Source: Bacteroidaceae bacterium
GTDB lineage: Bacteria > Bacteroidota > Bacteroidia > Bacteroidales > Bacteroidaceae
Direction of reading: 5' to 3'
Assembly: GCA_017520935.1 (NCBI GenBank)
Contig: JAFXEF010000045.1
Span: forward strand, 44,469-108,468
DNA length: 64,000 nucleotides
Positions 3,385 through 45,767 of the stretch are shown here, piece after piece. Within the stretch, counting starts at the first letter, position 1. Each line of letters opens with the position of its first letter. The translations under genes were made by a program, and so were the position numbers. Below the pieces are notes generated by a model. That model was not told where the DNA came from. It did no database searches and saw only the letters and a list, made by a program, of their open reading frames with translations.

Positions 3385-3541
3385 CTTTCTCTCTTCCATG
3401 ATAAATATTGCATAAAAAAAATGAATACGAAATTGCGTTCCATGCACGAGAGGCATGGAACATAAAAGATACAGGCACAAGCAACTTGCACCCATTTTTT
3501 AATTTGTCGAGTAAAACTATTGTACTATTGCCAAGCCTTAC

Positions 3542-4248: not shown

Positions 4249-4452
4249 AACACCAATATTAGTTGTTGCAAAGAAACAAATAAAATCCGAATATTCCTAA
4301 TGCCAACTCATAAAAATCCCACAGATTTTCGATTCATCAGAAAATAGAAAATCCTATTAAAAGGTTATCGTCTTCGTTATCGTTTTCGTAAATTGTCAAA
4401 TTATTCAATAGTACATAAATTGTACATTGTAAATCGTCAAATCGTAAATTAA

Positions 4453-9143: not shown

Positions 9144-9177
9144 TGTGGAGACCCTACCAAGGCTCATAGCTCACAGC

Positions 9178-13510: not shown

Positions 13511-13853
13511 ATATTTTTTCTTTTGATTATTTGTTGGAACACACATCTTTGACTATAGCTGCAAATAGGAATATCGAATTTAGAATAAAACAATTAATAG
13601 GGAATACCCCAATACAACTGTTTGCTATAACTCGTAATGATTATTGTAGCAAAAGCTCTTTTCAAAACGATAAACAAAAAATCTTTTAGGCCATTATCTC
13701 TTTAACGTCAGTCCGATATAAGAAATTCCTTTTTGAAATCATCTAACCAACTATCCCTCTGATTATAGAGAGACGATCCCAAAGGGCGGTGCGAATTTCA
13801 AGCGAAGCGAGGAGTTAAAAAATCAGTTTATTTCTCTACGCGATGCGCTTATA

Positions 13854-13870
13854 CCCCTCCCTGGGAGGGG
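13854..13870. repeat. GC-rich hairpin CCCCTCCC-T-GGGAGGGG followed by a G-run
   Basis: Palindromic arms at 13854-13861 and 13863-13870. The 29-nt core resembles the reverse complement of the element inside ugd at 36908-36936 (23 of 29 positions). Confidence 0.7.
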
Positions 13871-13925
13871 GCGGGGGGGTGGAGCAAAGTTCTTGCAATA
13901 AGTATGTTATGAATTTTTCTTATAT

Positions 13926-14807
13926 CTAGTTCATATTCTTTACTATATCATCCACAGATTTACATACACCATCGTGATTATTATCAAAGTCACTCACAGA
14001 CAGCAATGATATCTCTCTCTCTAAATTACGAATCTCAGTTATTCCACTTGTAAAAATACGACGAATCTCATCAAGATTAGTAATTACATCCGTATTACAA
14101 AAAGCCCGACTCACAATCACCATCTGACTACCCAAGCGATAATGTTCCTTTAAAATCATACGCCCAGGAACTGCACCACCATCTAATGAAGCCAAACCTC
14201 CAAAGCCGAACTGTATTCCCTTCTTACGAATAATCTTCGTCCATTTATCAACGGACCCATCAGCTAGCAACTGAAACATAAATTTCAAACCAAGAGCGAG
14301 ATGCATATCATTCAGTCCAATATGAATCATATCAATACCTGAAATGTCAACAATTTGTTCCAACAAATTAGCAGCCTCAGGGGTTTCGAGTAACAAACAT
14401 GTCTTAACATCTCTATTATATCTATCCCTTCCTTTTGAAACTATTCGGATAAAAGTATCAATCTCATCTATCGTCTTAAAAAAAGGAAGCATTATAATAT
14501 CTGCACCTGCTTTAATTACAGAATTAATTTCTTCCTCACTAGACGGATAGTTCATTCGATAAATAGAGCTATCTTCGCATAATTCCTCATGTATTGGATT
14601 TACTCGCACAAGAAGCTTCGATTGAGTTAACACTTTTTTGATGTTATAAACATCTTCAAATGTATGATGATTCTGTACCGTATCAAGCCCCCCCTGCCTA
14701 TAATCTTTACCAATAAATTCCATATCTACAAAAATCCAGTCAACTCCTACATTTTCTGCTATTTTTGCAATTTCAGGACGATTGGTTATGTACATTAATC
14801 TAAGCAT
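13926..14807 (-). CDS. HpcH/HpaI aldolase / citrate-lyase-beta-like family protein
   Basis: The N-terminus MLRLMYITNRPEIAKIAENVGVDWIFVDMEFIGK and the size fit the aldolase-type TIM-barrel proteins seen in CPS loci. Assignment is from memory. Confidence 0.55.
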   Translation of the reverse strand: MLRLMYITNRPEIAKIAENVGVDWIFVDMEFIGKDYRQGGLDTVQNHHTFEDVYNIKKVLTQSKLLVRVNPIHEELCEDSSIYRMNYPSSEEEINSVIKAGADIIMLPFFKTIDEIDTFIRIVSKGRDRYNRDVKTCLLLETPEAANLLEQIVDISGIDMIHIGLNDMHLALGLKFMFQLLADGSVDKWTKIIRKKGIQFGFGGLASLDGGAVPGRMILKEHYRLGSQMVIVSRAFCNTDVITNLDEIRRIFTSGITEIRNLEREISLLSVSDFDNNHDGVCKSVDDIVKNMN

Positions 14808-14823
14808 ATTATTTGTTTGAATT

Positions 14824-17393: not shown

Positions 17394-17476
17394 GAATTTT
17401 AATAATTTGATGTTTTTTACAAATATTATAAAATGGCAAATTACCCCTTAAAAATATATTGTCTCATAAACTAATT

Positions 17477-18577: not shown

Positions 18578-18607
18578 AATATAAAAATTGCGTTCTATCT
18601 ATATAAC

Positions 18608-19954: not shown

Positions 19955-19972
19955 AATAAGAAAATATAATTA

Positions 19973-21109: not shown

Positions 21110-21136
21110 TTGTTCTACTTTTTTTTAATTAATACA

Positions 21137-21745: not shown

Positions 21746-21792
21746 AACTGAATTACTAAATTTGTATTTATGCTCTATATCAGTCCCAGATT

Positions 21793-22473: not shown

Positions 22474-22616
22474 GTTAATTAATCGCTCTTTGAGATAGTT
22501 AATATCAAGAATACTTTCAACGCGGTCATCAATGCGATCAAAGGAAACGATTATCCTTATTTTGAGGACTGTTTGACAAATTATTTACTCGCCTATTTTT
22601 ATTGGACACTAATAAT

Positions 22617-23816: not shown

Positions 23817-23853
23817 CTTTCACTTCTGAAATATTACCTCTACTTAATGCTAT

Positions 23854-27006: not shown

Positions 27007-27010
27007 TTTT

Positions 27011-27097
27011 ACGAATTACGAGGGTCGAAGTTCGAATTACGAAGTGCGAGGTGCGAGGTTCGAAGTTCGAAGGTCGGGGTTCGAGGGTCGAATTACG
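27011..27097. repeat. Stutter tract (CGAATTACGAGG / GTCGAAGTTCGAA flavour)
   Basis: Sequence: acgaattacgagggtcgaagttcgaattacgaagtgcgaggtgcgaggttcgaagttcgaaggtcggggttcgagggtcgaattacgaggttcgacg. It overlaps the last codons of the four-helix-bundle gene. Confidence 0.8.
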
Positions 27098-27461
27098 AGG
27101 TTCGACGTTTTGAATTTCTAAGTCCAGCGAGCATTTGAGCAACAGCCTTCACCTGCTCTTCTGCCTCAAATAATTGATTCTCGTTTATATAACGTAGTTC
27201 ATTGGCAAGTTCTAATTGGCACATCACTTCGTTTAACGAGCCTAAAGCTATCTCCATAAAATGTGCCTGTTCTTTAACAGAAACTCTTCCCTCACCTTCA
27301 GCTATATTAGAGGGAATTGACACCACTGCTCTTCTCAACTGGTCACACAATGCATACTGCTCCTCCTTAGGGAATAATCGCAACAAATCGTATACATAAA
27401 GTACCAACTTCTTTGCCTGCTGATAGACTCGCAAATTACGATATGAGAAATTTTCATCCAT
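27093..27461 (-). CDS. Four-helix-bundle protein (23S rRNA intervening-sequence protein family)
   Basis: NLRVYQQAKKLVLYVYDLLRLFPKEEQYALCDQLRRAVVSIPSNIAEGEGR is the family signature. Confidence 0.8.
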   Translation of the reverse strand: MDENFSYRNLRVYQQAKKLVLYVYDLLRLFPKEEQYALCDQLRRAVVSIPSNIAEGEGRVSVKEQAHFMEIALGSLNEVMCQLELANELRYINENQLFEAEEQVKAVAQMLAGLRNSKRRTS

Positions 27462-27466
27462 TTTTT

Positions 27467-27587
27467 ACGAATTACGGGGTTCGGGGTTCGAAGTTCGAGG
27501 GGAGAATTTCGAAGTTCGAAGGTCGAAGGGCGAATTACGAGGGGTCGAAGTGCGAATTACGAGGGGTCGAAGTTCGAATTACGAATC
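27467..27587. repeat. Stutter tract (same TTCGAA/ATTACGAGG flavour) 5' of the four-helix-bundle gene
   Basis: A 120-nt run of degenerate cgaattacgaggggtcgaagttcgaa units. It begins with the same TCCATTTTTACGAATTACG junction seen at 27002. Confidence 0.8.
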
Positions 27588-28277: not shown

Positions 28278-31247
28278 CTACATACTTAAAATGTCGTTCA
28301 TAATAGCAGCAGCATCATCATACGCCTGCATCCTTGTCCAAAAACGCTTCTGATTCGGCTTAATGATATAAACCAGATTATCATCATAGTACCTAAGCGT
28401 TTTTTTCAGATATATTCCTTCTGATTGTTTAGAAGTCAAGAAACAGTCAATCTTCTTCAAAATCTTATCATAATCAGTCAAAAGACCAACTTTCACATCC
28501 CCCTCCTTCGCATTAATATGTATTACAACCAATTGCAACGGATTGTAGAGATTCCCCTCAAATATAGTCAACCCTATATTGAAACTGGTAGCCTCCACTA
28601 AGGCTGTGAATGCCTTTCCTAATGCCGATGCATAACGCAGCGATTCATCCAACAGGATTCTATTGTAACCCACTGATCTCATTTTATGTTGGAATATATC
28701 CAAATTAAAATCAAGTGTATCGTTAACATATACCTGATCTTTTTCTGTTAGGCCGAATGCTCTCTCCAATTCATTTTCAATAACATTTTCCAACTTCTCG
28801 ATGCGAATCTCATCACAAAGAGGTTCTACCTTCATCTGACAAATCTCATCAAACGCATTCACAATAACGTTTTTTGCATCTGACGACAATCTTTCAAAAG
28901 GTGAAGGCAGGTTCAAAACCTCATTTAGGAAGATCTGTTCCCGTTCCACTCCCCAAGACGATGTGGTAAGGAACAAGAAATATTTTGCTAAACGAGAATT
29001 CAGATAGGACGTCAATATCTTCTTATCATCTAAACTGCCACCATTCAGGACAAAGGCCGTAGTGGTAAAAAACACCTTCTCCATAAAGAGAGAACAGGCT
29101 ATCTCCCCATTATGCTGACCTTGTTTGAATGCCACAAAAGGTGCATCAAACAGTCCTTCTTTCACATTCCGATATTTTTTGGTCTGATTGATGCTGGCTG
29201 TAGTCAAATCACTCCAATACCTTGCAATACGATCTGTACTGATTATAGGATTGGGAACAAAGTCTCTCCTCTGAGAATCAGCATTCAACCCTCTGCCATA
29301 AATCCATCCATTACAATCAAAGTAATCCTTCAGAGAGACTTTCGTAAACCTATCTATCAATTGTGCACCGTAATAATTTCCCCAAGCGGCAACCTTCCAG
29401 ATTCTCGAATCCCTGCGTATGCATTCGCTAACTGGCAACATTTTCATATCACTCTCGTCTATCAACAGACCATCTATCAAACCAGACTTTACAAAAGTCT
29501 TAGGAGAACAGTATTTCACCAATGCATCTGTTTCAGGCACACCAGAAGAATAATACGCCACACACACTGGACAGGTGGCAGCAGAAAATAAACTTCCGCC
29601 AAAAGATTTTGGAGCCTTACGGAAAATGGATAAATTATCCACCCTTTTTACCCGATTTTTTGTAAACAGCCATTTCCTAAACTTGACATAACCGCCATTC
29701 GTGTTAAACAAGACCTTAGACGAAAACACTAATGCAATCATACCTTCCGGGCACAATTGTGTGGCTTTATGCATAAATGGCAACACATATTCAGTTGCAA
29801 AACCTTCGTGTTGACAATAATCCTTTATTTCTGGATCTAAATCCTTAGTACCATATGGAGGATTTCCCACAAGTAGTCTCAACGAAGGAAAACAATCAGG
29901 AGTCACATCCTTTATCGTGTCCCTTCTCAGCAAGTTACACCCCTGTCGATTCTTTAATCCCTCATCTTCAGGATCATAAATCAAATAAGGGAGCCTATGA
30001 TTTCCACTATTCCATAGCGTCTTTGGATCAAGCTGGTCTATCAACGTAAGATAAAGGCTGAATGCTGTAACCCGAATAGCGATAGGGTCGACATCAACAC
30101 CAAACACATTACCCTTTAACAAGGACACCAATGTTTCAAAGGAAGCAGTCTGCCCAGGATGTGCATACTTCCACCTCATGATAAGACGCCTATATCCTTC
30201 TACGAGAAAGATTCCAGATCCGCACGCAGGATCCAATAAAGGATAGTTAAATTCTTCGGACGAGCAAGGGAGTACTTCTGTCAACATCATATCAGCCAAT
30301 ACGAAAGGCGTATAGAACTGCCCCTTCTTATGCCGCAATTCTCCTAGGAAATTTTCATATATTTCACTGATTAGTCCTATATGGATAATCTCAAAATTGA
30401 ACAGACGTTCATGAAAAAGCAACTCTCCACTAAAGTCTCCGTCAAAGAAGCATGTGCGTATTATCTCAAGATGTCTTTCATTAACTATAGCTACCTCATC
30501 GGGATTCATAGCAGTTATATTCCCGTTGAACTGTTCCTGAAGTCTTATGAAAAGCCTATAAGTAGCTTCCTTATCCTTCAAGATATCAAAATATGACGAA
30601 GAATCGCTCTTTATAGATTCATATAGCCCGGCTTCGCTTGCAGCACCCTTATCTTCTAAAAAAAGGATAAAAAGTGACCTCATCAATAGAGAGTGGATTA
30701 TTTCCTTATCCAAGCCTTCTTTTGCAAGCATTCTCGCAGCCTCCCCCATGCACTTGATGAGGTATGTGTCAACACGCTGATCTTGCCGTATCTTTCGCTT
30801 TATTTCCTCGTTTTCTGTATGCCACAATGTACCGCAATCAATGTTCTTCTTACTGAACAACAGAGAAAGTATCTCTAAATCATCCCCTACTTTACTATCA
30901 GCAATCTGTAGTATATCCAACTGTTCCTCAAGTTTGTTCTCCACACTTACATTTGCTGGCATTCCATAACAATTATATATGCGGATCTCCACATCAGAAG
31001 TCACGAACAGAAGCATAACCCGCTGGTAATTCCATGCATTATGTTGCACTTGGGCAATCTTCTTCAGAGCTTTCTCATCAAAGGAAAATACGTCAAGAAA
31101 AAGAACAGCAGGTTTCCCCGCCGAAAAATATACACTTTCGGCTCCAATTTTACATATATCTGCATAATCTGGATATACAGAAGGTACATCGCTGATATTT
31201 ACCAACGAGCCCTCAAAACCAAGCCTATATATAAACTCCTTTTTCAT
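28278..31247 (-). CDS. N6-adenine DNA methyltransferase, large type IIG/Eco57I-like architecture (989 aa)
   Basis: Motif X-like GQFYTPFVLADMM, motif I LLDPACGSGIFLVEG and motif IV LLVGNPPYGTKD occur in gamma-class order. About 300 aa precede and about 500 aa follow the methyltransferase core. Confidence 0.8.
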   Translation of the reverse strand: MKKEFIYRLGFEGSLVNISDVPSVYPDYADICKIGAESVYFSAGKPAVLFLDVFSFDEKALKKIAQVQHNAWNYQRVMLLFVTSDVEIRIYNCYGMPANVSVENKLEEQLDILQIADSKVGDDLEILSLLFSKKNIDCGTLWHTENEEIKRKIRQDQRVDTYLIKCMGEAARMLAKEGLDKEIIHSLLMRSLFILFLEDKGAASEAGLYESIKSDSSSYFDILKDKEATYRLFIRLQEQFNGNITAMNPDEVAIVNERHLEIIRTCFFDGDFSGELLFHERLFNFEIIHIGLISEIYENFLGELRHKKGQFYTPFVLADMMLTEVLPCSSEEFNYPLLDPACGSGIFLVEGYRRLIMRWKYAHPGQTASFETLVSLLKGNVFGVDVDPIAIRVTAFSLYLTLIDQLDPKTLWNSGNHRLPYLIYDPEDEGLKNRQGCNLLRRDTIKDVTPDCFPSLRLLVGNPPYGTKDLDPEIKDYCQHEGFATEYVLPFMHKATQLCPEGMIALVFSSKVLFNTNGGYVKFRKWLFTKNRVKRVDNLSIFRKAPKSFGGSLFSAATCPVCVAYYSSGVPETDALVKYCSPKTFVKSGLIDGLLIDESDMKMLPVSECIRRDSRIWKVAAWGNYYGAQLIDRFTKVSLKDYFDCNGWIYGRGLNADSQRRDFVPNPIISTDRIARYWSDLTTASINQTKKYRNVKEGLFDAPFVAFKQGQHNGEIACSLFMEKVFFTTTAFVLNGGSLDDKKILTSYLNSRLAKYFLFLTTSSWGVEREQIFLNEVLNLPSPFERLSSDAKNVIVNAFDEICQMKVEPLCDEIRIEKLENVIENELERAFGLTEKDQVYVNDTLDFNLDIFQHKMRSVGYNRILLDESLRYASALGKAFTALVEATSFNIGLTIFEGNLYNPLQLVVIHINAKEGDVKVGLLTDYDKILKKIDCFLTSKQSEGIYLKKTLRYYDDNLVYIIKPNQKRFWTRMQAYDDAAAIMNDILSM

Positions 31248-31710: not shown

Positions 31711-32580
31711 CTACTCACCAAACTCACCTATTTCATTAAGTGGCAATGAGTCAGAAGGGTTCAAATGATCTATCGCACGCTCTGGAGAAACGACACTCCG
31801 ACCAAGACGCCTCTCAAAATCATCCCGAGCTGTCTTTGCGACCTCTGCACCCTCTTTCGCTACTGTAGCATTCGCGACAAAACCTTCCGGATTGCGTTCT
31901 TTACTCAATTGAGAGGCTGACTCCTCGGCCAAAGCATTGAGCAACAACTCCATATTGGTCATATTATCACGTAAATTTTCCTTAGTAAGTCCCTTATACT
32001 GCTTATATTCACGAGTTGTAAACCCACTCCAAGTCTTTGACATCAAATCCGTCAATGTTGCGAAATCAATAGCTTCTGTTATTCCTCCTCGTTTCCACTC
32101 GTCGGTCAGTCCCTTACGAATCTCTATCGTCTTGAGGCGTTGGTTTATCCAAGATTCAGAATACCCAAGACGCCTATAATCATTCATAGCCTGATCTATA
32201 GACAATTCAGGGTCAATCATTTGATTGACTCTATTAGCAGCTACCTGCGACATCCATAACTTAAACGGCTCGGCCTTGGGTGAAGGTATACTCTGAATGA
32301 TGCGAAAAATACCCTCCATATTAGCAGCCTGGGTATTATAATATTTACCATCAGAAGCCATCATTCGAGTAGGGGTACAAATTGTACCCCACCTGGAACC
32401 TAGTTCTGGATCACGCGCACGCATCTTCTTAATATATTGCTTCACATCAGCCGAATCTGTCAAAACAGCAATGACATCTGCGACCGAAAAGTAGAACTCC
32501 TGAGCAGCATCATCCCATACGGTCCTGACTTTACGACCCTCGAAAGATTGCAAATGCTGTCTATTACCATGCTGAGTCAT
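31711..32580 (-). CDS. Bro-N domain protein (phage antirepressor-like)
   Basis: FEGRKVRTVWDDAAQEFYFSVADVIAVLTDS fits the Bro-N pattern. The protein is 289 aa. Confidence 0.65.
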   Translation of the reverse strand: MTQHGNRQHLQSFEGRKVRTVWDDAAQEFYFSVADVIAVLTDSADVKQYIKKMRARDPELGSRWGTICTPTRMMASDGKYYNTQAANMEGIFRIIQSIPSPKAEPFKLWMSQVAANRVNQMIDPELSIDQAMNDYRRLGYSESWINQRLKTIEIRKGLTDEWKRGGITEAIDFATLTDLMSKTWSGFTTREYKQYKGLTKENLRDNMTNMELLLNALAEESASQLSKERNPEGFVANATVAKEGAEVAKTARDDFERRLGRSVVSPERAIDHLNPSDSLPLNEIGEFGE

Positions 32581-32940: not shown

Positions 32941-33152
32941 AACTCGATGCGAAGGTGCTTACCTCTAAGTTCGTCTAATCTCTGCTGATCAAGGATGCCT
33001 TCGTCCCACAACTGATTCATACGCTGATCTACCTTCTCAGCATAGTATTTGGTGAGCAATGCCTTTATTTCTGCTAAGCGCTCCAAATTGTCATCATACG
33101 CGAACATCTTGAGCAGATGTTGCTGGATGGGGTTGAATACGGTTGATGCCAT
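32937..33152 (-). CDS. Small protein in antitoxin position (71 aa from MASTVF)
   Basis: It is upstream of and overlaps the PIN remnant. I prefer ATG 33152 to the TTG start used in the track. No motif recognised. Confidence 0.45.
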   Translation of the reverse strand: MASTVFNPIQQHLLKMFAYDDNLERLAEIKALLTKYYAEKVDQRMNQLWDEGILDQQRLDELRGKHLRIEL

Positions 33153-33307
33153 AAGCTTGTCCTCATTGTTTGGTTGTAAAGATACGAACAAACGAGCGAA
33201 ATATCAAACTTGTTTGAGTATTTCTCAGCGAGTGAAGTCTATCTTAATGGTTGCCGTAAAGATACGGATACTTTACATATCTGCAAATGATTTTGTTCGT
33301 TTTGTTA

Positions 33308-33352
33308 TTCGAGGTGCGAAGGTCGAATTGCGGGGTTCGAAGTGTACTAAAC
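33308..33352. repeat. Stutter tract (GGTGCGAAGGTCGAA flavour)
   Basis: Sequence: ttcgaggtgcgaaggtcgaattgcggggttcgaagtgtactaaac, directly 3' of gmd. Confidence 0.7.
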
Positions 33353-33354
33353 TA

Positions 33355-34509
33355 TTATTTCACAATTCCCTTTTCGAGATACTCAGCAAGGTTAGTTCGT
33401 ACCTTAGAAGCAACGTTATCGGCTGCCACCTTGGCCATGTCGTGCTCGACCATAATCTGCACGAGCTGTTCGAAAGAGGTGGTCTGCGGGTTCCAGCCGA
33501 GCTTGGCCTTAGCCTTGGTGGGGTCGCCCCAGAGATTGACCACATCAGTCGGGCGGTAGAAATCGGGGCTTACTCTAACGAGAATCTGGCCTTCTAAATT
33601 GTTCTGGGTTGTTTGGTTAGGGGGTAGAGTGGCTTGCTTAGTGGCTCGATTGTCCTTGGCACAGATGCCCACTTCGTTGATACCCTCTCCTTCCCAACGG
33701 AGCTCGATGCCGGCATGGTGGAAGGCGAGCTGGGTGAACTCACGCACGGAGTGCTGCACACCGGTGGCGATGACGAAGTCTTCGGGCTTGTCCTGCTGGA
33801 GGATGAGCCACATGCACTCTACATAGTCCTTGGCATAGCCCCAGTCGCGAAGGGAGTCCATATTGCCGAGGTAGAGGCAGTCCTGCTTGTCCTGGGCAAT
33901 ACGGGCTGCAGCCAGGGTGATCTTGCGGGTGACGAAGGTCTCGCCACGACGTTCGCTCTCGTGGTTGAAGAGGATGCCGGAGCAGCAGTACATATTATAG
34001 GCCTCGCGGTACTCCTTGATAATCCAGAAACCGTAGAGCTTGGCTACAGCATAGGGTGAATAGGGATGGAAGGGGGTGTTCTCGTTCTGTGGTACCTCCT
34101 CGACCTTACCGTAAAGCTCGGAGGTGGAGGCCTGATAGATGCGGCAGGTATCCTCCAAATGGTTGGTGCGGACGGCTTCGAGGATTCGGAGCACGCCTAC
34201 GGCATCGACATCGGCCGTGAACTCGGGAGCATCGAACGATACCTGAACATGGCTCTGTGCGGCCAGGTTGTATATCTCGGTGGGCTGCACCTTGCCAACG
34301 AGCTTGACAAGCGACATGGAATCGGACATGTCGGCATAGTGGAGGTGGAAATGAGGAGTGCCTTCAAGGTGGGCAATGCGCTCACGGTAGTCGACTGAAC
34401 TACGGCGGATGATGCCGTGTACTTCGTATCCTTTCGCGAGAAGGAACTCGCTGAGGTAGGAACCGTCTTGGCCGGTAACACCGGTGATGAGGGCAATATT
34501 TTTTTTCAT
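33355..34509 (-). CDS. gmd: GDP-mannose 4,6-dehydratase
   Basis: [33 protein letters not shown] is the canonical Gmd N-terminus. The protein is 384 aa and carries an extra low-complexity segment [21 protein letters not shown]. Confidence 0.9.
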
Positions 34510-34522
34510 TCTTGTTTAGAGT

Positions 34523-34897
34523 TTATTGTTTAGAGGTTAGGGTGTATTTTCTTAGGCCTGATATTAATCGGGCTACAGTATTTATTGATTGTTCTAATTC
34601 TTCGTACTTGCTATTATTTATATAACCTAAATCGGTAGCTATATCAATTTGGCAATATACTTCCATTAAAGAAGCATAGGCTATTTCAAGAAAATGTGAC
34701 TTCTCCTTATCCGAGATACGGTTCATCCCTTCCACAATATTAGACGGAACCGATATAACTGCTCTACGTAATTAATCGGCAAGTGCATAACGTTCTTCCT
34801 GTGGTAGTATATTTACTACACCATATATATACTTTACTAATTCTTTAGCTTTTTGGTAAGCATTTAGTTCCTTAAAAGAATGAACTTTATTCTCCAT
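34523..34897 (-). pseudogene. Four-helix-bundle (23S rRNA IVS protein family) gene inactivated by one in-frame stop
   Basis: From ATG 34897 it reads MENKVHSFKELNAYQKAKELVKYIYGVVNILPQEERYALAD, then TAA (34774-34772) where the paralog has Q (ADQLRR). It continues in the same frame as LRRAVISVPSNIVEGMNR... to stop 34523. Confidence 0.8.
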
Positions 34898-35878: not shown

Positions 35879-35960
35879 TGGTTGGAGTTTAGAGGTTAGG
35901 GTTTAGGGTTTAGAGGTTAGAGTTTATTGTTTAGAGTTTAGAGGTTAGAGGTTAGGGGTT
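35879..35960. repeat. Stutter tract forming a G-free (coding-strand) leader 5' of fcl
   Basis: The plus strand at 35881-35960 contains no C at all (gttggagtttagaggttagggtttagggtttagaggttagagtttattgtttagagtttagaggttagaggttaggggtt). The distal end overlaps the rmlC stop. Confidence 0.85.
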
Positions 35961-36618: not shown

Positions 36619-38100
36619 TTAATCTCTTCTGAATATATCTCTTGTATAGACCTTATCCTGAACATCATCAAGCACAGCATCGTAGCGATTGGCTATGATG
36701 GCCTGTGACTGACGTTTGAATTCAGCTAAATCATTCACTACACGACTGCCAAAGAAGGTGGTACCGTCGGGCAAGGTGGGTTCGTAGATGATGACCTCGG
36801 CTCCCTTGGCCTTAACGCGCTTCATGACACCCTGGATGGAGCTTTGACGGAAGTTGTCGGAGTTGGACTTCATGGTGAGGCGGTAAACGCCGACGACAGG
36901 AATGGAGGCCTCCCCCCTACCCCTCCCAAAGAGGGGTGATTCAGACATTGCCGAAGCTTTCCCGTTACTCACAACTGAATCATATTGATTACTCTCGGTA
37001 TAACCATACCAACCAGCCATGCGGAGCACCTGGTCGGCAATGAAGTCCTTACGGGTGCGGTTGCTCTCTACGATAGCAGTCATCATATTCTGAGGCACAT
37101 CCTGATAGTTGGCAAGGAGTTGCTTGGTGTCCTTGGGAAGGCAATAACCGCCATAACCGAAGGAGGGATTGTTGTAATGGTCGCCAATGCGTGGGTCAAG
37201 ACCGACACCACGGATGATAGCGGCTGAGTCAAGTCCCTTGACCTCAGCATAGGTATCGAGCTCATTGAAATAGCTGACACGAAGAGCCAAGTAGGTGTTG
37301 GCAAAGAGCTTCACGGCCTCGGCCTCCTTCAACTCCATGAACAGCAAAGGGATGCCCTTGCTGAATTCTGAATTATCCTCTTCGCACTTCGTTTGAAACT
37401 CCCTCCGCTCCACTATCGTTCCGCTCGTCCCTCTATAAACAGAGGGACAGTCTTCTCCATTACCGATGGCTCCTTGGACTAAGAGGTGGGCAAAGGTGCG
37501 AGCAGCTTCTTCGAGGTGGTTGCCTGCAATCTGCTTGATGGCTTCTTGCTCCTCATCGGAACATTTCGCAAGCTTGGGATAGCCTACGATGATACGTGAA
37601 GGATAGAGGTTATCGTAGAGTGCCTTGCTCTCTCGCAAGAACTCGGGAGAGAAGAGAAGACGGAGCTTGCGAGTGGTGTCGTAGCCACGTTCACGGAATA
37701 GGCGAGCATACTTGACATACAAACTGCGGCAGTAGCCTACGGGGATGGTGCTCTTGATGACCATCGTGGCCTCGGAGCCACAGCCGATCACCGTATTGAT
37801 GACGTTCTCTACGGCAGAGGTGTCGAAGAAGTTCTTATGACTGTCGTAGTTGGTGGGAGCCGCGATGATGATGAAGTCGGCATCACGGTAGGCAGCCTCG
37901 GCATCGAGGGTAGCCACTAAGTTCAAATCTTTTTCAGCAAAATACTTCTCTATGTATTCGTCCTGGATGGGCGATACCCGGCGGTTGATCATATCGACCT
38001 TCTCAGGGATAATGTCTACCGCCACCACCTCATTGTGTTGAGCCAATAGAGTGGCCATACTGAGACCGACATATCCTGTTCCTGCTATGGCAATTTTCAT
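36619..38100 (-). CDS. ugd: UDP-glucose 6-dehydrogenase
   Basis: It has [22 protein letters not shown] and [18 protein letters not shown]. It is 493 aa, against roughly 440 expected, with two low-complexity inserts. Confidence 0.9.
36919..36937. repeat. GC-rich hairpin ACCCCTC-CCAAA-GAGGGGT inside ugd
   Basis: A 7-bp stem read directly from the sequence. It lies within the insert encoding [12 protein letters not shown]. Confidence 0.75.
37427..37448. repeat. Hairpin GTCCCTCT-ATAAAC-AGAGGGAC inside ugd
   Basis: A perfect 8-bp stem within the insert encoding [21 protein letters not shown]. Confidence 0.75.
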
Positions 38101-38153
38101 AGTTTTTTTGTTTAGAGTGTAGAGTGTAAGGTTTAGAGTTTAAGGTGTAGGAG
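38101..38153. repeat. Stutter tract forming a G-free leader 5' of ugd
   Basis: The plus strand at 38101-38153 lacks C (agtttttttgtttagagtgtagagtgtaaggtttagagtttaaggtgtaggag). Confidence 0.8.
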
Positions 38154-38191: not shown

Positions 38192-39439
38192 CTATTCTCT
38201 TCTGATATGCAGTGTGAAGGCTTCGGGGTGATGTTCCACGAATGCATTGGCATCGGTGACTACCAGTGCGAGGTAACCGCCACCACCGGCACCGGGCATC
38301 TTCAAAGCCAGGACATCGTCTAAAGCACTATAGTGGTCAATGGCCTCGGCAATATAACTGCCATCCTGCTCGGGATGGCCAATGTAGGTGGGTGTCACCA
38401 TACCGGGGAACATGGCAACCTGAGCCTCGAAAGAGGCACGGTAGGCAGCTGCAAAGGCTGTGAGGTCACGGGCAAGGATGGCATGCCAGCAGGCATCGGC
38501 TGCATCGGCAAGGGTCTTTACCTTAGCAGGGGTAATATCCTTATCCTCCACCACGGAACAGCCGGGCTTACGGGGTTCGAGGGGTAGCATCACGAGATGC
38601 TCTTCGAGAAAGCGAAGGGTCATCTCATCGGTGGTGTTCTCTATCTTCTTGGGCCAGAAATTGTTGTCGTAGTAGTGACGGCAGAGGCCAGGGACACAGA
38701 TACCGATGGAGTCCTGTGCGCCAGAAATATGTCCGTCCTCACGTTCGGGGTTGTTCTCGAAGCAGAAGACGAGGCGGGCCAACATCTCAGGTTCCATCTT
38801 CGGCAGTTTCATGGGCCAAATCTTCTGAATCATCTTGCGGGTACTGGTGCTGAGACCACAACGGTCGCGCACCTCAAAGGTGGGCTCCAACGAGATGGTT
38901 AGTGCCCAGCCGGGATGGTAGATGCTGACGTAGGGTTGGTCGATCCAGGTGCCGGCAAGGTCGAGACGGGTAGGTAGGCCTGTGAACTGTGAGCCATGGG
39001 CTGTGGGCTGTGGGCTTTCCTGTTGAGTGCTCAGTGCGGCTTTGAGGGAGCTGGAGCTGCGAGCCTGCAGTCCCTCGTGGGGAGTACGTTGGAGCTCAAT
39101 ATATTGGATACCCCGTTCCTCGCAGAGCTGACGCTTGGCCGGGCTGCCACCTTCGGCATTGACGACGAAGATATCGGGCTGTACGATATCGAGGGTGGGA
39201 ATAAAGTCGATGACTCCACTGCCCTCGTTGATATAGGCTTCCTTGACGGCCTTAATGTTGCGCACCATGAACAGACGTTCCTCCTGAGGGAACATGGGCT
39301 TACGGTGCTTGTATTCCAAGTAGGTGGCATCGGAACCGATACCTACATACAGCTCGCCAAACTGGGAGGCCTGCTGGAAGAACTCCACGTGACCGCTATG
39401 GAGGAGGTCGTAACAACCCGAGACGAAAACCTTTTTCAT
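38192..39439 (-). CDS. Bifunctional cytidylyltransferase-like / GHMP-kinase-like protein
   Basis: The N-terminus VFVSGCYDLLHSGHVEFF carries the HxGH nucleotidyltransferase motif. The C-terminal KMPGAGGGGYLALV resembles GHMP kinase motif 3. The domains are joined by a low-complexity linker SSSSLKAALSTQQESPQPTAHGSQ encoded by a stutter (38983-39015). Confidence 0.6.
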   Translation of the reverse strand: MKKVFVSGCYDLLHSGHVEFFQQASQFGELYVGIGSDATYLEYKHRKPMFPQEERLFMVRNIKAVKEAYINEGSGVIDFIPTLDIVQPDIFVVNAEGGSPAKRQLCEERGIQYIELQRTPHEGLQARSSSSLKAALSTQQESPQPTAHGSQFTGLPTRLDLAGTWIDQPYVSIYHPGWALTISLEPTFEVRDRCGLSTSTRKMIQKIWPMKLPKMEPEMLARLVFCFENNPEREDGHISGAQDSIGICVPGLCRHYYDNNFWPKKIENTTDEMTLRFLEEHLVMLPLEPRKPGCSVVEDKDITPAKVKTLADAADACWHAILARDLTAFAAAYRASFEAQVAMFPGMVTPTYIGHPEQDGSYIAEAIDHYSALDDVLALKMPGAGGGGYLALVVTDANAFVEHHPEAFTLHIRRE

Positions 39440-39485
39440 TCTTGTTTAGTGTTTAGGGTGTAGTTCTTCCCACGATTTATGCACA

Positions 39486-42340: not shown

Positions 42341-42474
42341 ACGCTATAGAATATTCTTTTGGTTCCTCGAAACAATCATAACAATCTTATTCCGAGCAAT
42401 TTACAGAAAATAGTCTCTAAATATGCACGTTTCATAAACGCCCTCCTTGCAGGAGGCAAACAACTAATTCAAAG

Positions 42475-42630: not shown

Positions 42631-43998
42631 ATGGCAAAGGAAAAAATCGCATACGTATGCACGGAATGTGGCTACGATTCGGCCAAATGGATGGGGCGAT
42701 GCCCATCGTGCGGTACATGGAACTCGATGAAGGAGCAGGTGGTACGTCCTGCGACTACCGACCGGCGGGCAGCACCGGGGTTTACCTTCGAGAAGACCCG
42801 TCCGCTGACACTGGCCGAGATAGCCACAGGCGAGGAGCCACGTATCGACATGCACGACGAGGAGCTGAACCGCGTGTTGGGTGGCGGACTGGTACCGGGG
42901 TCGTTGGTGCTGTTAGGAGGCGAGCCGGGCATCGGCAAAAGTACGCTGGTGTTGCAGACTATCCTACGCATGCCCGAGCAACGCATATTATATGTATCGG
43001 GTGAGGAGAGCGCACGCCAGCTGAAGTTGCGTGCCGACCGCATCCCCCACGATGACACCAACTGCCTCATCGTGTGCGAGACCTCGTTGGAGAAGATTTA
43101 CGCCCACATCAAGGAGACACAACCGAGCATCATCATCATTGACTCCATACAGACTATCAGCACGGAGACGGCAGAGTCGTCGCCCGGCAGCATCGTGCAG
43201 ATACGCGAATGTGCGGCCTCACTGCTCAAGTTTGTCAAGGAGAGCAACATCCCTGCCATACTCATCGGACATATCAACAAGGAGGGCAGCATAGCGGGAC
43301 CGAAGATATTGGAGCATATCGTCGATTGCGTGCTGCAGTTCGAGGGCGACCAGCACTATATGTACCGTATCTTACGAGGTATCAAGAACCGCTTCGGCAG
43401 CACGGCCGAGCTGGGCATCTACGAGATGCGTGGAGATGGCCTGCGGCAGGTGAGCAACCCATCGGAGCTGCTGCTCACCGATCGCCATGAGGGCATGAGC
43501 GGCATAGCCATAGCCTCGGCCATCGAGGGCATACGCCCCTTCCTCATCGAGACGCAGGCACTCGTGAGCACGGCTGCCTATGGTACACCGCAACGCTCGG
43601 CCACAGGATTCGACCTGCGAAGGATGAACATGCTGTTGGCGGTATTGGAGAAACGCGTGGGATTCAAGCTGGCACAGAAGGATGTGTTCCTCAACATTGC
43701 CGGTGGCCTTCGTGTGAACGACCCAGCCATAGACCTCAGCGTCATCAGCGCCATCCTATCGAGCAACATGGACACCGAGATAGAACCTACCGTATGTATG
43801 GCCGGTGAGGTGGGACTGTCGGGCGAGATACGTCCCGTGAGCCGTATAGAGCAACGCATTGCCGAGGCCGAGAAGTTAGGATTCAAGCAAATCATCATCC
43901 CCAAGCACAACATGCAGGGACTCGACACCAAGCGCTTCGGCATAGAGATATGTCCTGTGCGCAAGGTGGAGGAGGCGTTTAGGGTTCTGTTTGGATGA
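42631..43998 (+). CDS. radA: DNA repair protein RadA/Sms
   Basis: It has the N-terminal zinc ribbon YVCTECGYDSAKWMGRCPSCGTWNS, Walker A GGEPGIGKST and a Lon-like C-terminal domain. Confidence 0.95.
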   Translation: MAKEKIAYVCTECGYDSAKWMGRCPSCGTWNSMKEQVVRPATTDRRAAPGFTFEKTRPLTLAEIATGEEPRIDMHDEELNRVLGGGLVPGSLVLLGGEPGIGKSTLVLQTILRMPEQRILYVSGEESARQLKLRADRIPHDDTNCLIVCETSLEKIYAHIKETQPSIIIIDSIQTISTETAESSPGSIVQIRECAASLLKFVKESNIPAILIGHINKEGSIAGPKILEHIVDCVLQFEGDQHYMYRILRGIKNRFGSTAELGIYEMRGDGLRQVSNPSELLLTDRHEGMSGIAIASAIEGIRPFLIETQALVSTAAYGTPQRSATGFDLRRMNMLLAVLEKRVGFKLAQKDVFLNIAGGLRVNDPAIDLSVISAILSSNMDTEIEPTVCMAGEVGLSGEIRPVSRIEQRIAEAEKLGFKQIIIPKHNMQGLDTKRFGIEICPVRKVEEAFRVLFG

Positions 43999-44131
43999 AA
44001 GATGACAGTTGAAAGATAAAAGATGAAAGATGTAAAAGATGTAAAAGATGAAAGTTGGAAGGTGAACATATCTAAACACTAAACATCAAACACTAAACTC
44101 TAAACACTAAACACAATTAAACAAAACAAAA
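43996..44131. repeat. Two-part stutter tract: purine-rich GAAAGATG units then G-free CTAAACA units
   Basis: 43996-44064 reads gaaagatgacagttgaaagataaaagatgaaagatgtaaaagatgtaaaagatgaaagttggaagg. 44065-44131 has no G (aacatatctaaacactaaacatcaaacactaaactctaaacactaaacacaattaaacaaaacaaaa) and ends 4 nt before ATG 44136. Confidence 0.85.
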
Positions 44132-44135
44132 GGGA

Positions 44136-45767
44136 ATGATTCAAGAACTACAGCTACGGATTCTGCCAGAGCAGGCAGCCAATGAACAAAGCATAAAGCA
44201 ATATGTGGCTCGTGAGAAGGGACTGGATGTGCGCACTATACAGGCAGTGCGCACCCTGAAACGCAGTATTGATGCCCGCCAACGCACTGTCTTCGTGAAC
44301 CTCACAGTACGTATCTATATCAACGAACTACCCACCGACGACGAGTACACACAGACCTACTATCCGATGGTGGACGATGGACCTGCGGTGGTCGTGGTAG
44401 GAGCAGGGCCAGGCGGTCTGTTTGCCGCCCTGCGACTTATAGAGTTGGGATGCCGCCCCATCGTTGTGGAACGAGGAAAAGATGTACACACGCGCAAGCG
44501 CGACATTGCCCGCATATCGCGCGAGCATACAGTAGACCCGGAGAGCAACTACAGCTTCGGTGAGGGAGGTGCGGGAGCCTACTCGGACGGCAAGCTATAT
44601 ACACGTAGCAAGAAACGCGGCAACGTGGAGAAGATACTGAACGTATTTTGCCAACATGGGGCATCGACGACCATACTGAGTGATGCACACCCCCATATCG
44701 GTACGGACAAGCTGCCCCGTGTGATCGAGAACATGCGCGAGACGATACGTCGGTGTGGCGGTGAGGTGCACTTCGAGACACGCATGGACCGCCTCATCGT
44801 TGAGAAGGGACAAATCGTAGGCATAGAAACCCACAACGGCCGTACCTTCCGCGGTCCCGTCATCCTCGCCACGGGTCACTCGGCACGCGATGTGTACCGC
44901 CACCTTTGTGCTTCGGGAATAGATATCGAAGCCAAAGGCATTGCCGTGGGGGTACGCCTGGAGCACCCTGCCGAACTCATCGACCAGATACAGTACCATA
45001 ACAAGAACGGTCGTGGACGCTACCTTCCTGCTGCCGAGTACAGTTTCGTCACTCAAGTGGAGGGACGTGGCGTATACAGCTTCTGCATGTGTCCCGGCGG
45101 TGCCGTGGTGCCTGCCGCCAGCGGTCCCGAACAGATTGTGGTGAATGGCATGTCAGCCTCACATCGTGGCTCGCGTTGGAGCAACTCGGGTATGGTGGTG
45201 GAGATAAGACCTGAGGATATTGACAGCCTCACCCCGACCCTCTCCCAGGGAGAGGGAGACTCAGACCTCGCGGCTGCTCAGGATTCAGAATTCAAGGTTC
45301 AGAATTCCTTAAAGATGCTTCATTTTCAGGAAGAGCTGGAGCGACAATGCTGGATGCAGGGCAATCGCCGACAGACGGCACCTGCACAGCGTATGGTAGA
45401 CTTCACGCGCAAGAAGCTGTCGTATGACCTACCCTCCTCATCGTACTCGCCGGGGCTCATCTCCTCGCCCCTCCACTTCTGGATGCCAGAGTTCATCAGC
45501 AGCCGGTTGCAACGGGGTTTCGAGCACTTTGGACGCACCTCACGCGGATTCCTCACCAATGAAGCCACGGTGATAGGTGTGGAAACACGCACCTCGGCTC
45601 CTGTGCGCATCATCCGCGACCGCGACACCCTGCAGCATATCACCGTGAGCGGACTCTTCCCCTGTGGCGAAGGGGCGGGCTATGCAGGTGGTATCGTGTC
45701 GGCCGCCATCGATGGTGAGCGATGTGCGGAAGCAGCAGCGGAATATGTGAAAAGAATTGAGTATTGA
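44136..45767 (+). CDS. FAD-dependent oxidoreductase (COG2509-like)
   Basis: It has the dinucleotide-binding motif VVVVGAGPGGLFAALRL and a C-terminal GEGAGYAGGI. A low-complexity insert TLSQGEGDSDLAAAQDSEFKVQNS is present. Confidence 0.8.
   Translation: MIQELQLRILPEQAANEQSIKQYVAREKGLDVRTIQAVRTLKRSIDARQRTVFVNLTVRIYINELPTDDEYTQTYYPMVDDGPAVVVVGAGPGGLFAALRLIELGCRPIVVERGKDVHTRKRDIARISREHTVDPESNYSFGEGGAGAYSDGKLYTRSKKRGNVEKILNVFCQHGASTTILSDAHPHIGTDKLPRVIENMRETIRRCGGEVHFETRMDRLIVEKGQIVGIETHNGRTFRGPVILATGHSARDVYRHLCASGIDIEAKGIAVGVRLEHPAELIDQIQYHNKNGRGRYLPAAEYSFVTQVEGRGVYSFCMCPGGAVVPAASGPEQIVVNGMSASHRGSRWSNSGMVVEIRPEDIDSLTPTLSQGEGDSDLAAAQDSEFKVQNSLKMLHFQEELERQCWMQGNRRQTAPAQRMVDFTRKKLSYDLPSSSYSPGLISSPLHFWMPEFISSRLQRGFEHFGRTSRGFLTNEATVIGVETRTSAPVRIIRDRDTLQHITVSGLFPCGEGAGYAGGIVSAAIDGERCAEAAAEYVKRIEY
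45238..45256. repeat. Hairpin CCCTCTCC-CAG-GGAGAGGG inside the oxidoreductase CDS
   Basis: A perfect 8-bp stem, followed by the stutter gattcagaattcaaggttcagaattcc. Confidence 0.75.

Follow-up and report, generated by a model that had tools for sequence, protein, structure and literature searches.

According to the passages that treat them in PMC10969869 and PMC3733652 (Ogata et al. 2000, 2002), the RPE of Rickettsia are ~150-bp palindromes which lie between genes and also in frame within unrelated housekeeping genes. The peptide segment that they add is thought there to be compatible with the protein fold, and the mechanism of movement is given as unknown. RPE families are restricted to Rickettsia.

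In cyanobacteria, small dispersed hairpin repeats reportedly lie within tandem repeats of 7 bp or within mini-transposons, and nested insertions and compensatory stem changes are said to occur in them. Over-representation of heptamers in cyanobacteria has been described (PMC4692102). REP and REPIN sequences go with RAYT transposases and include intragenic REPs tagged with GTAG or CGTC (PMC3733652, PMC3116915). Bacterial MITEs and REPs have been described as almost exclusively intergenic; BrickBuilt, a MITE of the Bacteroidales species Porphyromonas gingivalis, is always intergenic and has internal tandem repeats of 23 bp (PMC4596501). QMITE of Coxiella forms occasional in-frame fusions (PMC5896051). 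A search of the literature on heptamer repeats or in-frame repeat elements of Prevotella and Bacteroides yielded nothing specific.

The present analysis concerns a stretch of 64,000 nucleotides from a Bacteroidaceae bacterium, referred to as the window. An initial annotation, made from the letters alone, had proposed that REP/MITE-like DNA lands in frame in its genes. This proposal holds in part. Its central idea is supported, but at least two families are involved, the pieces in ugd are fragments without transposon ends, and two of the hairpins listed with them are not supported as members.

Results

Two extra segments in UDP-glucose 6-dehydrogenase

The features of the window are collected in Table 1. 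Typical Bacteroidales Ugd is 434–443 aa long (gene matches of 1302–1329 bp), and the window protein is ~55 aa longer, in agreement with the two extra segments and the excess over ~440 aa reported for it. It aligns with PDB 3phl (E 1e-134) and PDB 1dli (E 1e-128) and has three Pfam domains, PF03721 up to aa 175, PF00984 at aa 258–348 and PF03720 from aa 404. The surplus residues, seen as alignment gaps against solved Ugd structures, are aa ~176–246 and 361–400. Both stretches are linkers that join neighbouring Pfam domains. Each contains a reported hairpin, GTCCCTCT-ATAAAC-AGAGGGAC at 37427-37448 (site 1) and ACCCCTC-CCAAA-GAGGGGT at 36919-36937 (site 2), both exactly as described. The view of the segments as surface loops agrees with these gaps and with the inter-domain position; the AlphaFold2 model (30-sequence alignment, mean pLDDT 50.6) is too poor for mapping exposure.

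An identical copy of the window Ugd is present on 15 contigs. The protein core is 82–96% identical to that of aligned relatives, and the ugd DNA outside the hot spots is 81.5–85% identical to that of two of them. Given the intact frame and the conservation of the core, ugd probably remains functional. The length of both insert pieces is a multiple of three bases and neither has a stop codon.

Both segments are absent from typical Bacteroidales Ugd in protein comparison. Nearly all close homologues carry some extra sequence at both sites, with the common flanks GNGE... and ...KGIPL. Among the 120 closest Ugd clusters, ~100 variants of 6–126 aa were seen at site 1 and ~80 variants at site 2. Hairpin elements, some of them nested, and tandem repeats of 7 bp make up these variants, and such repeats also fill the intergenic spacers of this genome. 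A single element whose two arms are separated by the central domain was rejected as the source of the two inserts, since their presence is uncorrelated across alleles and either site can host each insert type. A diversity-generating retroelement, an intein and an intron were excluded, as the segments vary in length and are small, and no template repeat is present.

Table 1. Coordinates of ugd, the extra segments and the repeat elements in the window.
Feature	Position	Strand	Remarks
Decayed intergenic MITE with ACGTGAGTTCGATATAAG-type terminal repeat	13703..13934	plus	between two minus-strand genes; aligned with six intact copies
Palindromic core element of that MITE	13749..13862	plus	nhmmer E 2e-18, model positions 1-117
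Intergenic G-rich hairpin element (hairpin 13854-13870)	13828..13889	plus	homologous to ugd insert 2; pattern search
RmlC extra loop	36201..36302	minus	aa 100-133, absent in PDB 6c46; origin unrecognisable in window strain
ugd, UDP-glucose 6-dehydrogenase	36619..38100	minus	493 aa, reading frame intact
ugd site-2 variable segment, copy of G-rich hairpin element	36901..36975	minus	aa 376-400, 75 bp
ugd site-1 extra segment	37360..37464	minus	aa 213-247, linker between NAD-binding and central domains
Two AATTCAG 7-bp units adjoining the arm	37360..37374	minus	encode NSEFS; read off the sequence
Left arm of ~150-bp palindromic element	37375..37449	minus	75 bp = 25 codons; holds hairpin 37427-37448
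CCCACAG-type 7-bp array, inter-domain linker of cytidylyltransferase-like protein (gene 38192-39439)	38997..39016	minus	Tandem Repeats Finder
Extra loop of FAD-dependent oxidoreductase (gene 44136-45767)	45216..45308	plus	aa 361-391, absent in PDB 3nlc
G-rich hairpin element in oxidoreductase loop (hairpin 45238-45256)	45220..45281	minus	orientation opposite to gene
TCAGAAT 7-bp array adjoining the G-rich element	45278..45307	plus	4.3 copies; Tandem Repeats Finder

Site 1 holds one arm of a palindromic element

The arm at site 1 matches the profile of a palindromic element (see next section) over model positions 2-71 (nhmmer, E 3e-16). Alignment of the window with allele L148 gave a clean 75-bp indel beginning at the element terminus. 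If the hairpin DNA had landed in the gene, insert borders were expected to follow it; by profile and covariance searches and by allele alignment they coincide with the borders of the repeat elements. In the position of the AATTCAG units, other alleles have (AATTGTC)n, (AAATCAG)n or (TCAGAAT)n. GAAGA is found at both junctions of insert 1; the ugd insert has no target duplication, just an imperfect GAAGAC/GAGGAT repeat.

A comparison of strains for presence and absence had been suggested. The site-1 insert is absent from allele L149, which belongs to the same species and has 96.4% nucleotide identity outside the hot spots, as well as from typical Bacteroidales Ugd. L149 also differs over ~25 bp on either side of site 1, which indicates that the polymorphism at this site reflects allele exchange, not simple insertion or excision. 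Insert 1 is common to alleles that are only 85% identical (L005) and is therefore old, so that its mobility is inferred from dispersed copies rather than any recent event. Between the window and L005 the insert-1 peptide is ~76–80% identical, compared with ~90% for the whole protein, and the stem of the insert-1 hairpin is invariant in all ugd alleles seen.

An exhaustive HMMER search of 1.84 billion cluster representatives with the 37-aa site-1 peptide returned 0 matches. The peptide is thus not a domain of any family; the search gives no census of insertions. The site-1 arm is also found in frame inside an NTP_transf_5 domain protein, where it is read in a different frame.

The palindromic element and its MITE carriers

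With a pattern taken from insert 1, 45 metagenome loci were collected. Their alignment defines a palindromic element of 143–161 bp, AACTGT...GGGGGAGTT, in which two inverted stem-loop arms form a long hairpin (13–15 full copies aligned). Folded as single-stranded DNA it reaches -38.3 kcal/mol (z = -7.1). Dozens of intergenic copies of this core exist, either solo with unrelated flanks or inside ~250-bp MITEs. The MITE carriers have 18–20-bp terminal inverted repeats, with CAGGGAAAACGCATTATAA and ACGTGAGTTCGATATAAG as inverted pairs 240–260 bp apart. Carriers of the CAGGGAA type (L085, L101, L128, L112) are flanked by direct target duplications of 8–10 bp, mostly ~9 bp, and the ACGTGAG-type carrier has TA on its flanks.

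Neither MITE ends nor terminal inverted repeats are present on the ugd or FAD oxidoreductase inserts, and ugd insert 1 comprises only positions 2-71 of the 150 of the inner core. Lacking terminal inverted repeats and target duplications, the ugd pieces are thus fragments or single arms and not whole mobile units. The decayed MITE of the window retains a left terminal repeat at 13705 with 2 mismatches and folds, as single-stranded DNA, no better than shuffled sequence (z = -0.7). The left half of its core is homologous to ugd insert 1 (blastn, 13754-13776 against 37425-37447).

Full-length cores were never found within a recognisable gene. In the right half, only one of the three forward frames is open (only this strand was read), which fits the survival of single arms only in genes. 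On the opposite strand, the stem of the left arm is preceded by CGTC; GACGA was, however, a fixed part of the search pattern, and in the right arm the corresponding bases are GCAC. None of the short loci examined yielded a transposase. For these elements Rfam 15 gave no match in the window; elsewhere the three elements gave sub-threshold chance matches only, such as whalefall-1 at 19.7 bits against a gathering value of 37.

Site 2 and the G-rich hairpin element

The hairpins had been described as a single family. The two hairpins of ugd come from two different families, whereas the copies in the oxidoreductase and at 13854 do match insert 2. The element they share is ~50–60 bp long, with the layout CGCGATGTCTG - CCCCTC - loop - GAGGGG - NN - GGGGGAGGCC. 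At site 2 it is detected by nhmmer at 36898-36971 (E 2e-23), the profile spanning 74 of the 75 variable bases, and by the covariance model at 36901-36962 with 53.7 bits, this copy being a training sequence. The intergenic hairpin at 13854-13870, also part of the original claim, is a copy of the same element by pattern search and by the covariance model (40.8 bits, again for a training sequence). The match of 23 of 29 positions between the reverse complement of 36908-36936 and 13853-13881 was confirmed: when up to 2 mismatches are allowed, the pattern CCCCTCNNNGGGAGGGGNNGGGGG occurs at just those two places in the window, against 0.00 expected.

For two further hairpins assigned to the family, membership is not supported. 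The one in the primase (1070-1086) gave a covariance-model E of 2.5, and the one at 42442-42456 was detected by no model. GC-rich hairpins with a perfect stem of at least 7 bp number 8 loci in the window, compared with 2.7 +/- 1.9 in shuffles (maximum 9). This excess is only modest. The significance rests on homology between copies and not on hairpin counts.

In alleles L149, L148 and L150, site 2 is occupied by 7-bp repeats instead, (CTCAACY)n in the case of L149. No empty site 2 was seen in close relatives, only the exchange for another filler. A third element of ~70 bp with three hairpins is nested at the loop of the G-rich hairpin in one ugd allele and one oxidoreductase allele. Matches to this third element in viral contigs (110, none with the upstream hairpin) were dismissed as chance. 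When viral contigs were scanned for the G-rich motif, high-GC contigs with a similar, probably unrelated motif made up about half of the matches.

Loops of other enzymes and the 7-bp arrays

The hairpin reported inside the FAD oxidoreductase is real and lies within a loop that is ~24–31 aa in surplus of PDB 3nlc and exists in 32 distinct variants among 120 close homologues. Its G-rich element was detected by nhmmer with E 0.004 before this copy entered any model, and scored 38.7 bits with the covariance model. The 'stutter' said to follow the hairpin is the TCAGAAT array. Oxidoreductase entries of 781–835 aa were considered as giant inserts and rejected; they are internal tandem duplications.

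For RmlC, an excess of 24 aa had been noted and ~26 extra aa were found against PDB 6c46; the same loop site in strain L150 has (GCTCACA)n. The 20 aa claimed for gmd were only partly recovered, as 10 extra aa in one loop with no recognisable element. The low-complexity linker of the cytidylyltransferase-like protein proved to be a 7-bp array, replaced at the same place by a different unit, (CAKAAAT)n, in allele L148. Such repeats, the principal co-occupants of the variable sites and overlooked by the initial annotation, explain much of the low complexity (this linker, the RmlC site in other strains and the 'stutter').

There are 3.6 arrays of 7-bp repeats per 10 kb in the window, 6.5 in close relatives and 1.4 in other Bacteroidales. 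In the surface-polysaccharide locus they occur within several genes and immediately ahead of many start codons. Adjacency of elements and arrays is weakly enriched (5/22 against a background of 6.8%); a mechanistic tie between arrays and element insertion was not relied on, the enrichment being weak.

Discussion

The in-frame repeat DNA in the enzymes studied here adds a new case to a phenomenon known above all from Rickettsia. It is likely that inter-domain linkers and loops of conserved cytoplasmic enzymes in Prevotella-like Bacteroidaceae have been colonised by the repeat DNA of the lineage's own intergenic space. The pieces would be translated as ~25-aa low-complexity loops and tolerated, and appear to be selfish or neutral passengers, not adaptations. 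With neither terminal repeats nor a target duplication, canonical MITE transposition is probably not the route of arrival; a more plausible one is the insertion of a single arm in the manner of a REP, or else a switch of template or illegitimate recombination where short homology (GAAGA) is available. Hypervariability may be kept up by slippage of 7-bp arrays, by nested insertions drawn to hairpin loops and by allele exchange through homologous recombination. Selection would purge every out-of-frame or stop-containing outcome.

A lineage-specific active process that makes and moves tiny structured DNA modules, preferentially seeding existing arrays and hairpins, is a possibility that we regard as rather doubtful. 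The modules would be the hairpin arms, the ~50-bp G-rich element, the ~70-bp loop-targeting three-hairpin element and the 7-bp array families, and the process could be templated or transposase-driven, as proposed for the cyanobacterial small dispersed repeats. If real, it would turn the linkers of housekeeping and capsule-synthesis enzymes hypervariable, possibly with switching of frame.

Frame switching is also central to the proposal that the 7-bp arrays are phase-variation switches for ugd, rmlC or the oxidoreductase, with the hairpin elements as bystanders at contingency loci. Seven is not divisible by three; gain or loss of one or two units through slippage would put a gene out of frame and turn it off reversibly. 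Both the unit and the copy number of the arrays vary between close strains, and the arrays lie in several genes and near start codons of the surface-polysaccharide locus. In Haemophilus, seven-base repeats upstream of the hmw genes modulate their expression, which also speaks for such a role. We nevertheless consider it unlikely. With 2–4 units, the arrays within genes of the window are short, a size at which slippage is slow, the oxidoreductase and primase-like genes have no link to the surface, and all recovered alleles are in frame, although protein databases would under-report frameshifted copies. That the inserts are adaptive appears quite improbable. Loops could have been recruited for a function such as oligomer contacts, regulation or localisation of capsule-synthesis enzymes, or the mRNA hairpins could act as stabilisers, pause sites or processing sites in the polysaccharide operon; the retention of the 75-bp arm in frame across alleles diverged to 85% nucleotide identity, the unchanged hairpin stem and the position of the inserts in polysaccharide-locus genes, where the spacers are also repeat-built, are consistent with this. 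However, a single site has ~100 unrelated variants including none at all, the insert peptide is less conserved between the window and L005 than the protein as a whole and matches no protein family, and the element is translated in differing frames and orientations in different proteins.

We find it hardly credible that the segments are ancestral lineage-specific loops whose likeness to intergenic DNA is coincidental or a matter of low complexity. The extra sequence and shared flanks at both sites of nearly all close homologues would be expected of such loops, but the nhmmer values of 3e-16 and 2e-23 were obtained against profiles from intergenic and other-gene copies, the indel against L148 is clean, other Bacteroidales lack the segments, even a 96%-identical allele lacks that of site 1, and the G-rich element recurs in reverse orientation in an unrelated enzyme. 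Ribosome bypass or removal, by which the inserts would stay untranslated, is very improbable as well. Phage T4 gene 60 has a 50-nt ribosomal hop, and GC-rich hairpin elements of mobile origin within coding sequence resemble byp, the GC-rich elements in Magnusiomyces mitochondrial genes. The byp elements do not keep frame, whereas more than 130 distinct variants in the two enzymes all do so and have no stop codons, a constraint that only translation of the inserts would be expected to impose.

Colonisation of enzyme loops by intergenic repeat DNA would have several consequences. In-frame selfish palindromic DNA in essential genes, hitherto regarded mainly as a Rickettsia curiosity, now appears in an abundant gut Bacteroidales lineage, with the added features of nested element families, coding 7-bp tandem repeats and ~100 allelic variants at one enzyme loop. 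Length checks on orthologues, gene calling and strain typing will be misled by the loops, which could, on the other hand, be used as strain markers of very fine resolution. At these positions, Ugd, RmlC and the oxidoreductase seem to accept arbitrary insertions of 6–126 aa, which is of use for tagging and engineering. The loops are also a natural experiment on the birth of peptide segments from non-coding DNA.

Among the described systems, MITEs are resembled by the ~250-bp carriers, which have terminal inverted repeats, target duplications, no coding capacity and multiple copies. Unlike BrickBuilt and QMITE, the ugd inserts have no MITE ends and are internal fragments of a MITE core. As in REPINs, inverted stem-loop arms form a long hairpin, the bare core has no target duplication and single arms are scattered; in contrast to REPINs, the core is found within MITEs, too, whose terminal repeats are of transposon type and whose target duplications measure 9 bp, and the short loci showed no RAYT gene. 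REPs occasionally lie within known genes, and the left-arm hairpin begins with CGTC on the other strand, but this tag was partly imposed by the search pattern, the right arm is without CGTC, and the arms are ~65 bp long compared with 20–40 bp for REPs. With the cyanobacterial repeats these elements share tiny hairpins, a setting of 7-bp repeats or mini-transposons, nesting, compensatory changes in the stems and the concentration of heptamer arrays in spacers near genes. The phylum is different, there is no sequence similarity, and in-frame insertions into enzymes are not emphasised there.

The resemblance to RPE is one of behaviour and not of family membership, and no sequence similarity is expected. 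In both cases a dispersed palindromic repeat of 100–150 bp is found between genes and in frame within them. The host of RPE is an obligate intracellular alphaproteobacterium, whereas here it is a free-living gut Bacteroidales (a Bacteroidaceae MAG lineage). Only single arms or fragments occur in genes here, the whole elements containing stop codons, and several families together with 7-bp arrays pile up at one or two loops. Finally, RPE insertions are fixed, whereas the loops described here are hypervariable between strains.

Length variation of Ugd at two linkers

At 493 aa, Ugd is longer than expected, as the initial annotation had pointed out; other Bacteroidales ugd matches are mostly 1302-1329 bp, that is 434-443 aa. 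The host is an uncultured Bacteroidaceae of a Prevotella-like lineage, and the closest species-representative genome has an 89% identical Ugd. Since the identical protein is carried by 15 independent contigs, its length is not an assembly artefact. The two hairpins reported in ugd, ACCCCTC-CCAAA-GAGGGGT at 36919-36937 and GTCCCTCT-ATAAAC-AGAGGGAC at 37427-37448, were confirmed in sequence and position. Comparison with solved structures (Klebsiella 3phl, Streptococcus 1dli; E about 1e-130) gave three aligned blocks, and the unaligned stretches (aa ~176-246 and 361-400) both lie between the three Pfam domains (domain limits aa 175, 258, 348, 404).

Ugd ranges from 431 to 571 aa across the nearest 120 protein clusters, which are about 65-99% identical. 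In an alignment of 30 of these, the core is 82-96% identical to the window protein and length varies solely at two points, after GAIGN (site 1) and after GWYGYxExNQY (site 2). The 120 clusters hold about 100 distinct segments of 6-126 aa at site 1 and about 80 of 18-59 aa at site 2. Typical Bacteroidales Ugd runs from ...LLQEGAI into KENIDTLFMG... at site 1, with no intervening residues, and its site 2 is short.

Insert 1 and the palindromic element

A blastn search of insert 1 against the window revealed a relative at 13754-13776. The pattern CCCTCTNNTYATAGAGRGACGA, derived from these two copies, matched 45 metagenome loci, whose alignment defined a palindromic element of 143-161 bp: AACTGTCCCTCTGTTTATAGAGGGACGAGC...GGAGGGAGTTCCAAACGAAGTGCGGAG - (AT-rich loop) - CTACGCGCTTCGCTTATAACGCCCCCGCCCTACGGGCACCCCCTCTATAAACAGAGGGGGAGTT. 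The two arms form a long imperfect inverted repeat, and each ends in a small hairpin of its own; as single-stranded DNA the element folds at -38.3 kcal/mol (z = -7.1 vs shuffles). The element is found either between unrelated flanks without target duplication (e.g. loci L093, L109, L111) or as the core of ~240-260-bp MITEs. These are of two kinds. One has terminal repeats CAGGGAAAACGCATTATAA and a duplicated target of 8-10 bp, in most cases ~9 (L085, L101, L128, L112); the other has terminal repeats ACGTGAGTTCGATATAAG and TA on its flanks. The core interior occurs in two forms with identical outer ends, A...rcB (L084, L111, L089, L103) and B...rcA (L085, L113 and others), as expected if the central segment inverted via recombination between the arms.

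An nhmmer profile of the core matched the window twice, at an intergenic MITE copy whose fold is no longer significant and at a left arm in ugd (Table). The left arm also lies in frame inside another protein (L100, L088), in its NTP_transf_5 domain, and is read there in a different frame (TVPLFIEGR...) from that used in ugd. Inside recognisable genes, no full core was found.

Comparison of strains had been proposed earlier for presence or absence of the inserts. Relative to allele L148 (81.5% nucleotide identity outside the hot spots), the window ugd has a single clean insertion of 75 bp (25 codons), TGTCCC...GAAGAGGAT, which begins at the element terminus, is bordered by GGTAATGGxGAAGAC on one side and AATTCAGAATTCAGCAAGGGC on the other, and has GAAGA at both junctions. 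L148, without this arm, retains AATTCAGAATTCAG at site 1 and has 7-bp repeats at site 2. In L149, an allele of the same species (96.4%), site 1 is empty and site 2 is (CTCAACY)n; its divergence over about 25 bp either side of site 1 is as expected from allele exchange by recombination. L150 (94.4%) has site 1 as in the window and (GCTCACA)n at site 2. The arm is at the window's position in L005 (85%), L091 and L099, followed by other 7-bp arrays (AATTGTC, TCAGAAT, AAATCAG); insert 1 is therefore old, inherited or exchanged, and not a recent hop.

Insert 2 and the G-rich hairpin element

Insert 2 is a member of a second family, distinct from that of insert 1. The motif CCCCTCNNNGGGAGGGGNNGGGGG is present in the window solely at 36913-36936 (minus) and 13854-13877 (plus), with a chance expectation of none. 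A profile was built from four ugd alleles, and further copies were found before entering any model: one in the FAD oxidoreductase (Table), intergenic ones in L109, L095, L119, L106 and L084, several in Phocaeicola locus L014, and five (~1180-4680) in the Bacteroidales-type viral contig L131 (IMGVR_UViG_3300045988_064998), a putative phage. The consensus is CGCGAWGYCTG - CCCCTC - loop - GAGGGG - NN - GGGGGAGGCY; its 7-bp stem is backed by 20 copies with a few compensatory changes. An unfiltered covariance-model search of the window returned the three training copies only. The hairpins in the primase (7 bits, E = 2.5) and at 42442 (no match), earlier grouped with these, are not supported as members of the family. 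In L131, arrays of TTGAACA and AACTTTG accompany the five copies within ~3.5 kb. At L109 1377-1408, a copy precedes a T-run at the end of convergent genes; the Rfam match there to whalefall-1 RNA (19.7 bits, below the gathering score of 37) is probably due to chance.

Other enzymes and a third element

The oxidoreductase loop (aa 361-391) is missing from PDB 3nlc and has 32 variants in 120 close homologues, composed of the G-rich element, NSEFKIQNS-type heptamer translations and other modules. In four homologues of 711-835 aa (P0121, P0122, P0123, P0144), an internal stretch of ~290 aa containing the loop is duplicated in tandem, either as an assembly artefact or as a real repeat-mediated duplication.

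A third dispersed element, about 70 bp long, contains three hairpins, in the order CGACGC-loop-GCGTCG, TTGCGACGA, middle hairpin, AAGGAGT, final hairpin. Across six copies the middle stem differs completely in sequence from one to the next but stays complementary (complete covariation), and an Rfam search with the element gave zero matches.

The additions noted in other enzymes were borne out to different extents. RmlC has a 26-aa extra loop, which in strain L150 is a (GCTCACA)n array with the same unit as site 2 of that strain's ugd. The unit is also seen in a window spacer (9162-9181), which points to dispersal of repeat units as families rather than to a local origin each time. For the cytidylyltransferase-like linker, the window has (CCCACAG)n and L148 has (CAKAAAT)n. 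Gmd does have an extra loop (10 aa vs E. coli GDP-mannose dehydratase), but it holds no recognisable element or array.

Repeat features in the window and in comparison loci
Feature	Position	Details
ugd	36619-38100	minus strand; 493 aa
Palindromic core, decayed intergenic copy	13749-13862	nhmmer E 2e-18; within kind-2 MITE at about 13703-13934
Palindromic left arm only, in ugd	37375-37451	nhmmer E 3e-16; model positions 2-71
G-rich element in FAD oxidoreductase	45224-45278	opposite orientation; profile E 0.004
gmd extra loop	33609-33684	aa 276-300; A/C-rich low-complexity coding
Third element, ugd allele P0008/L151	L151 4198-4281	+72 bp, in frame, nested at G-rich hairpin loop
Third element, oxidoreductase allele P0216/L152	L152 4099-4185	+69 bp, in frame, nested at G-rich hairpin loop
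Third element, other metagenome contigs	L092 2205-2256; L094 100-142; L106 646-688; L084 4491-4534	
Spacer 7-bp arrays	35885-35960; 38110-38150; 39443-39464; 34512-34539; 43994-44114	GAGTTTA; TAGAGTG; TGTTTAG; GATGAAA; CTAAACA
7-bp arrays within genes	213; 832; 1288; 38997; 45278	
In-frame arrays, primase-like region	213-242; 832-863; 1288-1321	CCCTAAA; AACTCAT; CCCTCAA

7-bp tandem repeats and genomic setting

Tandem Repeats Finder reported about 25 rows of period 7 in the window (17 non-overlapping arrays); every other period was far rarer. Arrays number 3.6 per 10 kb in the window; the figure is higher in close relatives (6.5) and lower in other Bacteroidales loci (1.4). The arrays mostly form short spacers between co-directional genes at 33-46 kb; in the GC-rich polysaccharide operon the spacers are almost wholly 7-bp repeats, frequently stopping just upstream of a start codon. 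Heptamer repeats are over-represented in other bacteria (PMC4692102); for Prevotella and Bacteroides, our literature search turned up no such account.

The primase-like ORF (CHC2 zinc finger, 477-1454) and ORF 5-535 together have three in-frame arrays. The GC hairpin at 1070-1086 encodes SHPPLRGNEE, and a similar hairpin, TCATCCCCCCTTGGGGGGAACGAGGGGGGCCACCC, is seen near the start of L148. An intergenic gap of ~650 bp holds (CGAGGTT)x13 at 27009-27109 and (GTTCGAA)x13 at 27475-27584, with higher-order periods of 14, 22 and 28 bp. Positions 14000-24000 have 30-34% GC, against 50-54% in the flanking ugd/rmlC/gmd region; they probably represent a glycosyltransferase cassette that the polysaccharide locus has exchanged horizontally. 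Genes interleaved with sugar-nucleotide genes (28278-31247, 31711-32580, 33049-33597; as called in L001) encode a 989-aa type IIG-like restriction-modification fusion (N6_Mtase/Eco57I), a Bro-N domain protein and two small 23S_rRNA_IVP/bAvd-like products.

Discussion

Linkers of two enzymes, Ugd and one other, hold in-frame copies of two intergenic repeat families; the insert borders coincide with element borders, and close alleles differ at the insert sites. The phenomenon is general in the Prevotella-like lineage. The initial annotation, by which REP/MITE-like elements land in coding sequence and persist as in-frame surface loops, was right in essence, but its details need correction. Repeat pieces would be translated and tolerated, the survivors being only stop-free pieces, a multiple of three in length, in permissive loops. 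They probably arrived via single-arm insertion or template switching rather than MITE transposition, and the hypervariability probably stems from slippage of the arrays, from insertions nested in one another and from exchange of alleles.

Skipping of the inserts by translational bypass is contradicted by the reading frame, which is invariably preserved. The inserts are very unlikely to be ancestral loops; the same-species allele lacks the arm at site 1. Further, unlikely explanations are that the loops are adaptive or that the hairpins act in mRNA, and, for the 7-bp arrays, phase variation via slippage. In-gene repeat colonisation is a real feature, relevant to bacterial genome evolution.

Cyanobacterial small dispersed repeats, in Elhai's 2008 account, reportedly show the same combination as here, in which tiny hairpin elements occur with heptamer arrays, with MITE carriers and with nesting. 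Rickettsia palindromic elements and intragenic REPs behave like the elements described here (PMC10969869, PMC3733652). All three systems are probably unrelated to these elements in sequence, and Rfam holds no match for the latter. Unlike these known systems, fragments rather than whole elements are found here, several families are piled at the same loops, and allelic diversity is extreme.
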